A stretch of 14,790 nt of DNA from a virus (taxonomy: Duplodnaviria > Heunggongvirae > Uroviricota > Caudoviricetes): IMG/VR virus record IMGVR_UViG_2657245448_000011. The stretch is one strand, 5' to 3'. Each line of letters opens with the position of its first letter. Within the stretch, counting starts at the first letter, position 1. Positions 13,381 to 14,583 of this stretch are shown piece after piece. The notes below the pieces were generated by a model. The model was given only the letters and a program-made list of their open reading frames with translations. It searched no databases and was not told the DNA's origin. A program made the translations under genes and the position numbers.

Positions 13381-13470
13381 AATCAAAATCCTTTCTGTAA
13401 AACTGGTTGAAAAAAGACCTCTCCATCACATAAGAATATTGATGTCATTGACAGAAAAGGAACATTAATC

Positions 13471-13998
13471 ATGGAATTAAGAATATTAGTGATGGCTGGA
13501 ATGTTGATCAGTTGTTCAGCGGTGGCAGAAAACAGCCTGACCGTCAAAATGAACGACGTACTCTCTGACGGTGCAGGTAAAAACATCGGCGAAATAACTG
13601 TGTCTGAGACACCTTACGGCCTGCTTTTTACCCCCGACCTTAACAACCTTACCCCGGGAGTTCATGGCTTCCATGTCCATACTAATCCATCCTGCATGCC
13701 TGGTCTCCAGGATGGTAAAAATGTGCCAGCCCTGATGGCCGGTGGCCATCTGGATCCTGAGAAAACAGGTAAACACCTTGGACCGTACAATGATAAAGGT
13801 CATCTGGGCGATCTTCCTGGGCTGGTTGTCAGTACAGATGGTAATGCCACATACCCGGTCCTGGCACCGCGCCTCAAATCGCTGTCCGATCTTAAGGGGC
13901 ATTCGCTTATGATCCACAAAGGCGGTGATAACTACTCCGACACTCCGGTGACTCTTGGCGGAGGTGGGACACGTTTTTCTTGTGGTGTCATAAACTAA
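13471..13998 (+). CDS. sodC: Periplasmic Cu,Zn superoxide dismutase (prophage-borne, SodCI-like)
   Basis: 175-aa ORF with signal-peptide-like N-terminus; His-rich metal-binding motifs (GFHVHTNPSC, GGHLDP, GHLGDLPGL, HKGGDNYSD) and C-terminal GGGG..CGVI. RBS AAAGGAA. Opposite strand to the tail genes, typical of a moron. Confidence 0.9.
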   Translation: MELRILVMAGMLISCSAVAENSLTVKMNDVLSDGAGKNIGEITVSETPYGLLFTPDLNNLTPGVHGFHVHTNPSCMPGLQDGKNVPALMAGGHLDPEKTGKHLGPYNDKGHLGDLPGLVVSTDGNATYPVLAPRLKSLSDLKGHSLMIHKGGDNYSDTPVTLGGGGTRFSCGVIN

Positions 13999-14059
13999 CT
14001 GCAGGTAATACAACAAAAAGACACCGGACAGCACCTTTAGGAGGAGGCTGGAAAATTTA

Positions 14060-14083
14060 CCCAATAAAAAACCCTCTCAGCGG
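14060..14083. terminator. Bidirectional rho-independent terminator between sodC and the lom-like gene
   Basis: AAAAAA-CCCTC-tcagcg-GAGGG-TTTTTT: a GC stem flanked by an A-run and a T-run, between the convergent 3' ends of sodC (13998) and the lom-like gene (14113). Confidence 0.6.
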
Positions 14084-14112
14084 AGGGTTTTTTATTGGAA
14101 TATTGAATACTG

Positions 14113-14583
14113 TCAGAAACTGTAACCCACACCCAAAACCCAGGTTCCGGCATCAATATCATCACCCAGTTGAGTACTGAATTTAGCATGCTCATATGAG
14201 GCATTGATTGAAAAATGCTCTACCGGGTTAACCTGGATACCGATCCCATAGGCGAAACTCGTTTTAGATTCACTGTGCCCAAAATTATCTTTCACTTCGC
14301 CACTGGCCCCTCCGAGCATGATGTAGGTACTCAGAAAATCATTAAAACGATATGACGGCCCCACAAGGAAAGACGTGTAGTTAACTTCGCCAACCCGATA
14401 GCCGTAATAATAATGATTAAGATCAGCTTCGGTATAGGTAAGCGACCCCACTACGCCAAACCCGCTATTCAGATGTTCCCAATTATATTTCAGATTCGCA
14501 CCAGCTGCATTTCCTGAAATCAAACCAGACAAATGTGTATGTGCATATCCCAGAGACACGGTATTTTTATAATCATGTAGTGG
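14113..14583 (-). pseudogene. Lom/Ail/PagC-family outer-membrane beta-barrel gene, 5'-truncated by IS insertion
   Basis: Open frame with OMP-type C-terminus (GVGYSF) and Ail/PagC-like beta-strand pattern. The frame runs back only to 14583, where it meets the stop codon of the IS transposase. No ATG and no signal peptide; the mature N-terminus (DYKNTVSLGYAH) aligns with PagC ADTNAFSVGYAQ. Confidence 0.75.

Follow-up and report, generated by a model that had tools for sequence, protein, structure and literature searches.

An intact SodCI-type superoxide dismutase gene beside an ISEc31-split lom gene in a probable Gifsy-2-like prophage of Escherichia coli

Introduction

The stretch of viral DNA analysed in this work (IMG/VR virus record IMGVR_UViG_2657245448_000011, 14,790 nucleotides (nt) long, hereafter called the window, to which all positions refer) carries a gene for a Cu,Zn superoxide dismutase (sodC) and part of a gene of the lom/ail family, which lie immediately upstream of the tail gene L of a lambdoid late operon. 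Based on the comparison of the window with phages, prophages and sister assemblies (relatives labelled L001-L130), it is very likely that this DNA belongs to a Gifsy-2-like prophage in which a SodCI-type moron has been kept intact, while the lom gene next to it has been split by a simple insertion of the insertion sequence (IS) ISEc31. The list of open reading frames (ORFs) and the Pfam matches place the late operon on the minus strand and the window at the tail/cargo end of the prophage, and, judged by its sequence, the entire window is prophage DNA. A preliminary description of the same DNA had singled out the interval 13381-14583, and these limits fit the features found here (Table 1), 13381 being the first base beyond the ATG of L and 14583 lying 8 nt into the IS.

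Results

Position of the cargo genes in the tail operon

For the presence of cargo genes upstream of L, the preliminary description had offered two explanations, either an insertion of cargo between M and L or a rearrangement which removed the upstream tail genes, and it had proposed a comparison with the gene order of the Gifsy-2 and Fels-1 prophages. The first explanation turned out to be the correct one, with sodC as an independent antisense moron beside lom and upstream of L. In lambda, M adjoins L directly, and the same two genes abut in the Stx2 phage EH2201 (where sodC occupies the slot between I and J, and lom follows J), whereas in the window's prophage, as in Gifsy-2, they are parted by lom and sodC.

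Gifsy-2 is the best phage match to positions 11000-14790 (83% coverage), the two being collinear across I-K-L-sodC-lom, and its annotated order (tape measure H, gpM, lom STM1043, sodC STM1044 on the opposite strand, gpL, gpK, gpI and gpJ) is identical to the one found here, orientations included. The likeness extends to the enzyme (83% identity between the two SodC proteins, SodCI also providing the best-matching solved structures) and to the terminator, whose stem is conserved in Gifsy-2. The differences reside in the host (Salmonella), in the tail genes (approximately 70-77% identical), in the region upstream of sodC, which is unrelated, and in the damage to lom, which in LT2 is broken by premature stops before the last strand and not by ISEc31. 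In Fels-1, lom is also located between M and L, but the slot of sodC differs, since sodCIII lies between I and J. The sodC genes of Fels-1 and of E. coli O157/Stx phages (sodC-F1/F2; PMC2569942) are, like the one described here, antisense morons with periplasmic products in a lambdoid tail operon, but they use the slot between I and J, and the Fels-1 SodCIII and Stx-phage SodC proteins show 57% identity to the SodC of the window.

The layout is not peculiar to the window and corresponds to the standard Gifsy-2 order. About 27 IMG/VR loci, found by a SodC protein scan and then mapped with tblastn, share the order H-M-lom-sodC(+)-L-K-I-J, among them a metagenome copy with an intact lom and a SodC of 98% identity. 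Two relatives with an identical SodC (L004 and L007) run uninterrupted from the portal gene through H-M-lom-sodC-L-K-I-J, their lom coding for 176 amino acids (aa). The same order and phage type are seen in the Salmonella Denver/Ngili prophage (GCA_007313395.1 and GCA_007585305.1), with the Denver-type SodC, found in Denver and Ngili, as the nearest allele (97% identity), as well as in two uninterrupted E. coli copies (GCA_014771515.1 and SRR4241870), in which SodC is identical. Both groups agree closely with the window in L (96%), in lom (98.7%) and in the intergenic region between L and sodC (100%); they differ from it in having an intact lom (176 aa) and no IS, and a mosaic pattern runs through their K, I and J genes and head modules, which are either 85-90% identical or replaced. 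On these gene orders, the segment between M and L which houses lom and sodC is a known and conserved moron slot, and the arrangement is an ordinary one.

One Denver relative (L125) has the same order and is 92.8% identical to the window over I-lom, and 97.6% identical over H-M to L092, a sister contig described below. Taken piece by piece, the comparison of L125 with positions 11323-14575 is mosaic (I 88%, K 85%, L 96%, L-sodC intergenic region 100%, sodC 97.5%, sodC-lom intergenic region 93% and lom 98.7%), the cargo block together with L, M and H forming a module that is better conserved than K, I and J.

The superoxide dismutase

The sodC gene is a full-length ORF coding for 175 aa, in which no frameshift is seen. 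Its product matches Pfam Sod_Cu (PF00080, E=1.2e-29, 103.9 bits against a cut-off of 28.9) and PHROG 1975 ("moron... superoxide dismutase precursor", 2.5e-88), and with 209.2 bits it also exceeds the cut-off of the NCBIfam SodC equivalog NF007628 (165). Its top matches in the PDB are the Salmonella SodCI structures 6d52 (6e-91) and 1eqw (2.8e-90), with the E. coli chromosomal SodC (1eso, 1.4e-54) far behind. By these matches and the identities given above, the enzyme is closer to SodCI than to chromosomal SodC/SodCII or to SodCIII. We read residues 1-19 (MELRILVMAGMLISCSAVA) as the signal peptide, a call which is based on the chain starts in the PDB, given that the mature chains of 6d52 and 1eqw align from query residues 20 and 21 onwards.

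The preliminary description had made the identity of the enzyme depend on its catalytic histidines, and on full alignment all of them are kept. The Cu ligands (H68, H70, H93 and H149), the Zn ligands (H93, H102, H111 and D114), the catalytic R168 and the disulfide pair C75/C171 are all present, and none of these key residues varies when the protein is aligned with SodCI, SodCIII, an Stx-phage SodC and a S. arizonae SodC. The ligands were assigned following the FHVH, GGH, KH, GHLGD and MIH motifs of the solved SodCs. Additionally, residue S170 (Ala in most sequences) is common to the window, Denver and metagenome alleles, and the identical SodC protein occurs on 8 contigs. We regard sodC as an intact gene for a Cu,Zn superoxide dismutase with predicted Sec-dependent export and predicted activity. 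At 83% identity to the dimeric SodCI, it is plausible that this enzyme is also dimeric and protease-resistant; phage-borne SodC enzymes have been described as dimeric and as surpassing chromosomal SodC in both activity and stability (PMC2569942).

An own ribosome-binding site and an own terminator had both been attributed to sodC. The former holds (AAGGA, 9 nt 5' of the ATG), and a strong hairpin is indeed present downstream, but it is shared with lom. This hairpin has a folding energy of -24.6 kcal/mol (z -6.4) on the plus strand and of -23.7 kcal/mol (z -5.3) on the minus strand, values by which it is a terminator in both directions, and it would serve sodC and lom together, given that the two genes are convergent.

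The lom remnant

In the window, the lom ORF (14113-14559, minus strand) codes for 148 aa from an internal GTG start and has no signal peptide. It matches Pfam Ail_Lom (PF06316, 44.9 bits against a cut-off of 23), with a match that begins only at profile position 32, as well as OMP_b-brl (1.1e-15), and it ends in ...VLGVGYSF, a beta-barrel C-terminus with an aromatic last residue. The membership in the lom/ail family of outer-membrane proteins, as proposed in the preliminary description, is confirmed by these matches, but the gene is not whole, its 5' end having been replaced by ISEc31. Compared with the intact lom of L004 (176 aa), the remnant covers residues 24-176 at 99% identity; the window is collinear with L004 up to 14575 only, where the homology to intact lom ends. 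What is missing are the first 68 nt of the gene, comprising the ATG and the signal peptide MNKLAVAVLAMSVLGGVGVASAA (residues 1-23). Without the signal peptide the product would be unable to reach the outer membrane and, read in this way, lom is a pseudogene in the window; as the IS has decapitated it, sodC is the only plausible working cargo here.

The full-length Lom of the sister contigs matches PHROG 108 ("Lom", 9.5e-41), Ail (3qra, 1.7e-25) and also OmpX structures, and stays below the NCBIfam equivalog cut-offs for OmpX and Rck. It shares with the Ail/Lom family (lambda Lom, Yersinia Ail and OmpX) the eight-stranded outer-membrane beta-barrel, whereas lambda Lom has longer loops (about 200 aa against 176 aa), and the Lom proteins of Stx phages and E. 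coli prophages that were compared are 30-38% identical to the window type.

Two further observations concern the damage to this gene. The lom remnant is in the reading frame of the ISEc31 transposase, from which it is separated by the transposase stop (asterisk) and three codons (PLH) (...KTVASIT*PLHDYKNTV..., 14576-14586), a shared frame which is probably a coincidence. In Gifsy-2 of LT2, the lom homologue STM1043 (L001, NC_010393, 11666-11710) reads ...DVKAGT*VLGA*VLGVGYSF, with premature stops and a small duplication ahead of the last beta-strand. Given that the lesion consists of stops in LT2 and of ISEc31 here, the lom gene beside sodC would have suffered two independent lesions, one in LT2 and one in this E. 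coli, with sodC intact in both.

The ISEc31 insertion and the DNA beyond it

Positions 14576-14790 give matches to rve_3 and rve_2, and in 215 of 215 bases they are identical to ISEc31 as annotated in E. coli EcPF15. The agreement with ISEc31 is complete over the 215 base pairs (bp) that the window holds, which are its right-hand part only, and extends to the TG...CA terminal inverted ends (TGTAGTGG... and ...CCACTACA) and to the presence of a 3-bp target duplication.

For the opposite junction, IMG/VR was searched with a pattern in which the far end of ISEc31 is followed, after 0-8 nt, by the lost 5' sequence of lom, and one contig (L092) matched. Its junction consists of ...CCACTACA, followed by TCA and then by GCTGCACTTGC..., and past the IS it continues with the lom 5' stub, M (114 aa) and a 990-aa tape measure gene and, further on, with tail chaperone, major tail protein, head-tail genes, capsid and portal, at 98% identity to L004 across the tail genes. 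A second contig, reached through the exact tape-measure allele of L092, ends in the same ISEc31/TCA/lom 5' junction (L124, contig CCBR01000281.1 of GCA_000940555.1). The triplet TCA abuts the IS in the window, does so again at the opposite end of the IS in L092 and L124, and occurs in a single copy in the intact L004; when the flank from the window and the flank from L092 are joined, the intact lom of L004 is restored in 155 of 155 bases. It should be borne in mind that the two junctions were seen in separate assemblies belonging to one lineage and not on one contig. With TCA on both sides and rejoined flanks that match L004, the event would be a simple IS3-family transposition. An exact-match scan of a species-representative genome collection for the IS/lom junction returned no match.

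The idea that a rearrangement had removed the upstream tail genes is contradicted by these sister contigs, in which lom 5' end, M and tape measure up to the capsid follow a clean TCA duplication; the tail genes that the preliminary description had wished to see sought beyond the IS are present there. That M and H are also kept in the window's own genome is, on the evidence of the sister assemblies, highly probable. In RefSeq, the proteins of the window half (WP_0446883xx and WP_0446893xx) have numbers close to those of the other half (WP_04469066x); all are named Escherichia coli, and each is found on 6 contigs. Additionally, one relative (L123, IMGVR_UViG_2663762810_000004) physically joins I-K-L-sodC' of the window type to a capsid/head region of the L092 type. 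The break of the contig at the IS would be an assembly artefact and not the end of the prophage.

Host and rarity

In sister contigs, the DNA to the left of the window contains yciO, trpH, trpLEDCBA, yciG, yciF and yciE, at 99.9-100% identity to complete E. coli genomes, and the homology to the E. coli chromosome ends some 190 bp short of window position 1. Prophage and chromosome meet just beyond the edge of the window, downstream of yciE (L129, 9811-10000). The identity of this trp-yciGFE flank, together with the names of the identical proteins, identifies E. coli as the host. An E. coli origin had at first seemed doubtful, megablast having found no close copy, and the doubt was resolved in favour of E. 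coli by the same flank identity and protein names.

Among complete E. coli genomes the sodC/lom block was found in 0 of 5,426, the best match covering a third of the query at 67% and the rest being 170-bp fragments of approximately 68% identity to other sodC genes. By megablast, neither the complete E. coli genomes nor the phages contained a close copy of the window, the tail genes matching at about 72-75% and the IS alone at 99% or above. In the species-representative collection, a protein-guided scan for sodC returned only chromosomal sodC genes from other genera, at 69% identity or below, which have no bearing on synteny, and a literature search on the assembly, run and protein accession numbers gave no match.

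Discussion

Proposed origin and function

In the reading that we prefer, a Gifsy-2-like lambdoid prophage would have integrated next to yciE in the E. coli chromosome, with its late operon on the minus strand and with two independent morons between M and L, lom in the direction of the late operon and sodC antisense to it (an orientation typical of morons, PMC7067206), both converging on the shared terminator. In the lysogen, sodC may be transcribed from the 90-bp region between L and sodC, independently of the repressed late operon, and its product would be exported via Sec to the periplasm, where it could dismutate superoxide arriving from outside, for instance from the phagocyte oxidase. The 1,257-bp ISEc31 would have entered lom by transposition where the signal peptide gives way to the mature protein, duplicating TCA and leaving a 68-nt 5' stub beyond the window and a headless 3' remnant. 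Past the IS, everything from M, tape measure, chaperones and major tail protein up to the portal is kept in the sister assemblies and most likely also in the window's genome. Expression of L-K-I-J would, in that case, need antiterminated late transcription across the 1.26-kb IS.

Weighing of the alternatives

Several observations weigh against this reading, and some of them lead to the view that we are dealing with a degraded remnant, in which the IS marks a deletion or rearrangement, M, the tape measure and the head genes are gone, and sodC sits on a tail-only fragment. The window's own contig, as well as all identical contigs, stops inside the IS, leaving the far side unseen for its own genome and the retention of M and H dependent on the sister assemblies. 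Large deletions of the same prophage do exist: in L123, sodC is cut at codon 36 (at approximately 6100) and fused to the capsid region, with J internally deleted, and in L130 (GCA_000939135.1, 12434-12799) J-I-K-L-sodC have been lost, the tail fibre gene abutting a chromosomal GGDEF/EAL gene. In these sister strains, the prophage has truly decayed. Furthermore, the IS may be polar on L-K-I-J and leave the phage unable to form tails. ISEc31 does accompany tail-operon deletions, its copy in EcPF15 (L090, NZ_CP054227, 6001-7257) being located in a lambdoid tail operon between a truncated I and a truncated J; as the triplets flanking that copy differ (ATG and TCC), without a target duplication, its insertion would have come with a deletion, in contrast to the clean TCA duplication described here. 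Nevertheless, the reciprocal junction does exist, with the same IS, site and TCA and then intact M and tape measure up to the capsid, the flanks rejoin to an intact lom without a single mismatch, and the alleles specific to each half are each carried by 6 E. coli contigs under neighbouring accession numbers, all of which makes a remnant unlikely.

The second group of objections concerns sodC itself, which could be a decaying passenger, unexpressed or catalytically impaired and of no benefit to the host. A sigma-70 scan of 13381-13470 revealed no consensus upstream of sodC, and the 90-bp upstream region has no meaningful similarity to that of Gifsy-2 sodCI; on both grounds, the expression and regulation of the gene are putative. 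The best promoter candidate found by eye (TTGAAA-N18-TAAGAA, 13407-13436) is weak, and a perfect TTGACA at 13448-13453 was rejected as being too near the ATG. The Gifsy-2 sodCI gene is under PhoPQ control, which cannot be assumed here, the upstream regions being unrelated, and a search by eye alone gave no convincing PhoP-box-like repeat. Moreover, the window allele carries A167T (codon 167, 13969-13971) directly before the catalytic Arg168, a change seen in this allele only among nine aligned SodCI-type sequences; sodC has been lost in sister strains, and the neighbouring lom is already dead. On the other side, the full-length ORF retains its signal peptide, all eight metal-ligand/catalytic positions and the disulfide pair, it exceeds the curated SodC equivalog cut-off, and the same protein recurs on 8 contigs. 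At the position equivalent to 167, human SOD1 has Ser. The intergenic region between L and sodC is 100% identical in E. coli, in the metagenome copy and in the Salmonella Denver prophage, a conservation across genera in the vicinity of K and I genes that are only 85-88% identical. Additionally, the homologous sodCI of Gifsy-2 is highly expressed in lysogens in which the lytic genes are silent (PMC7067206). Taking both sides into account, a silent or inactive sodC seems improbable to us.

That sodC and lom were inserted between M and L separately in an E. coli phage, the match with the Gifsy-2 slot being a convergence, would be in line with the use of the slot between I and J by Fels-1 and the Stx phages (sodC morons having been inserted more than once), but it is very improbable, since the neighbouring genes L, M and H also show 96-98% identity to the Denver prophage, the intergenic regions are shared with Denver and the terminator stem is shared with Gifsy-2; accordingly, the cargo block would have arrived together with the tail module. 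The preferred reading would instead have the H-M-lom-sodC-L module (93-98% nucleotide identity to the serovar Denver prophage) gained by phage exchange with Salmonella and not built de novo in E. coli.

Significance

Beyond annotation, the significance of these results is small: the Gifsy-2 slot between M and L, with lom and sodC, and a SodCI-type enzyme occur in E. coli as well as in Salmonella. The locus offers a clean example of an IS which splits a moron while the tail genes on either side are kept and, in practical terms, a warning that the lom-like "virulence gene" of this strain is a pseudogene. If the SodCI-type enzyme is expressed, the E. coli lineage would be convenient for testing the special properties of SodCI outside Salmonella.

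A bolder possibility, which we put forward tentatively and hold to be rather doubtful, is that a Salmonella SodCI-type enzyme, of the allele class linked to survival in macrophages, was carried between genera by a Gifsy-2-like tail module, reached an E. coli lineage that is rare and has been kept intact and expressed while the rest of the prophage decays. If this were true, sodC would be in the course of domestication as a host fitness gene, and E. coli would have gained a Salmonella-like defence against the phagocyte oxidative burst. SodCI has been reported to shield an extracytoplasmic target against phagocytic superoxide (PMC2654757).

Other features of the window

The features of the window are collected in Table 1. 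The Pfam domains of J and the gene calls for I and K were obtained from an identical contig (L005). A scan of the window with Rfam gave no RNA family.

Table 1. Features of the window, with positions on the 14,790-nt stretch and assignments predicted from profile matches and sequence comparison.
Feature	Position	Strand	Remarks
SRAP/YedK-like peptidase	1-672	+	
ORF without known function	691-1161	+	
umuC	1134-2402	-	
umuD	2404-2823	-	mechanical ORF extends to 2874
dinI	2901-3143	+	
Tail-fibre assembly gene	5783-6385	-	
Tail fibre gene	6396-7661	-	
J, tail tip/host specificity	7753-11253	-	1166-aa ORF; GpJ Pfam domains in gene calls of L005
I, tail assembly	11323-11994	-	Lambda_tail_I E=3.3e-14; 223-aa gene call from L005
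K	11931-12674	-	Prok-JAB + NLPC_P60 (Pfam); 247-aa gene call from L005
L, minor tail protein	12685-13380	-	Phage_tail_L E=9.8e-90; ATG at 13380 gives the 231-aa product of gene callers
L-sodC divergent intergenic region (90 bp), presumed sodC promoter	13381-13470		RBS (ribosome-binding site) AAGGA 13457-13461
sodC, SodCI-type periplasmic Cu,Zn superoxide dismutase precursor	13471-13998	+	signal peptide codons 1-19 = 13471-13527
Bidirectional intrinsic terminator, sodC/lom	14061-14098	both	17-bp stem, A6/T6 flanks
lom/ail-family remnant, 5'-truncated	14113-14575	-	codons 24-176 + stop; Ail_Lom, OMP_b-brl
TCA, right-hand copy of the 3-bp target-site duplication	14573-14575		abuts IS
ISEc31 right end (IS3 family)	14576-14790	-	OrfB transposase C-terminus 14584-14790; window ends within IS

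The central part of the tail fibre gene codes for a low-complexity stretch rich in Ala, Ser and Glu, which gives rise to spurious long ORFs on the opposite strand (6817-7167, 6938-7447 and 7164-7649). Downstream of the tail-fibre assembly gene there are two tandem pairs of diverged paralogues (4373-5121 and 5239-5768): the members of one pair (4373-4756 and 4753-5121) are 33% identical to each other and have no family match, and those of the other (5239-5472 and 5499-5768) are 36% identical and both match PHROG 4772, of unknown function. Finally, the end of the prophage (1-3143) holds an SOS/mutagenesis cargo cluster, and a similar block, approximately 90% identical, is present in three E. coli genomes.

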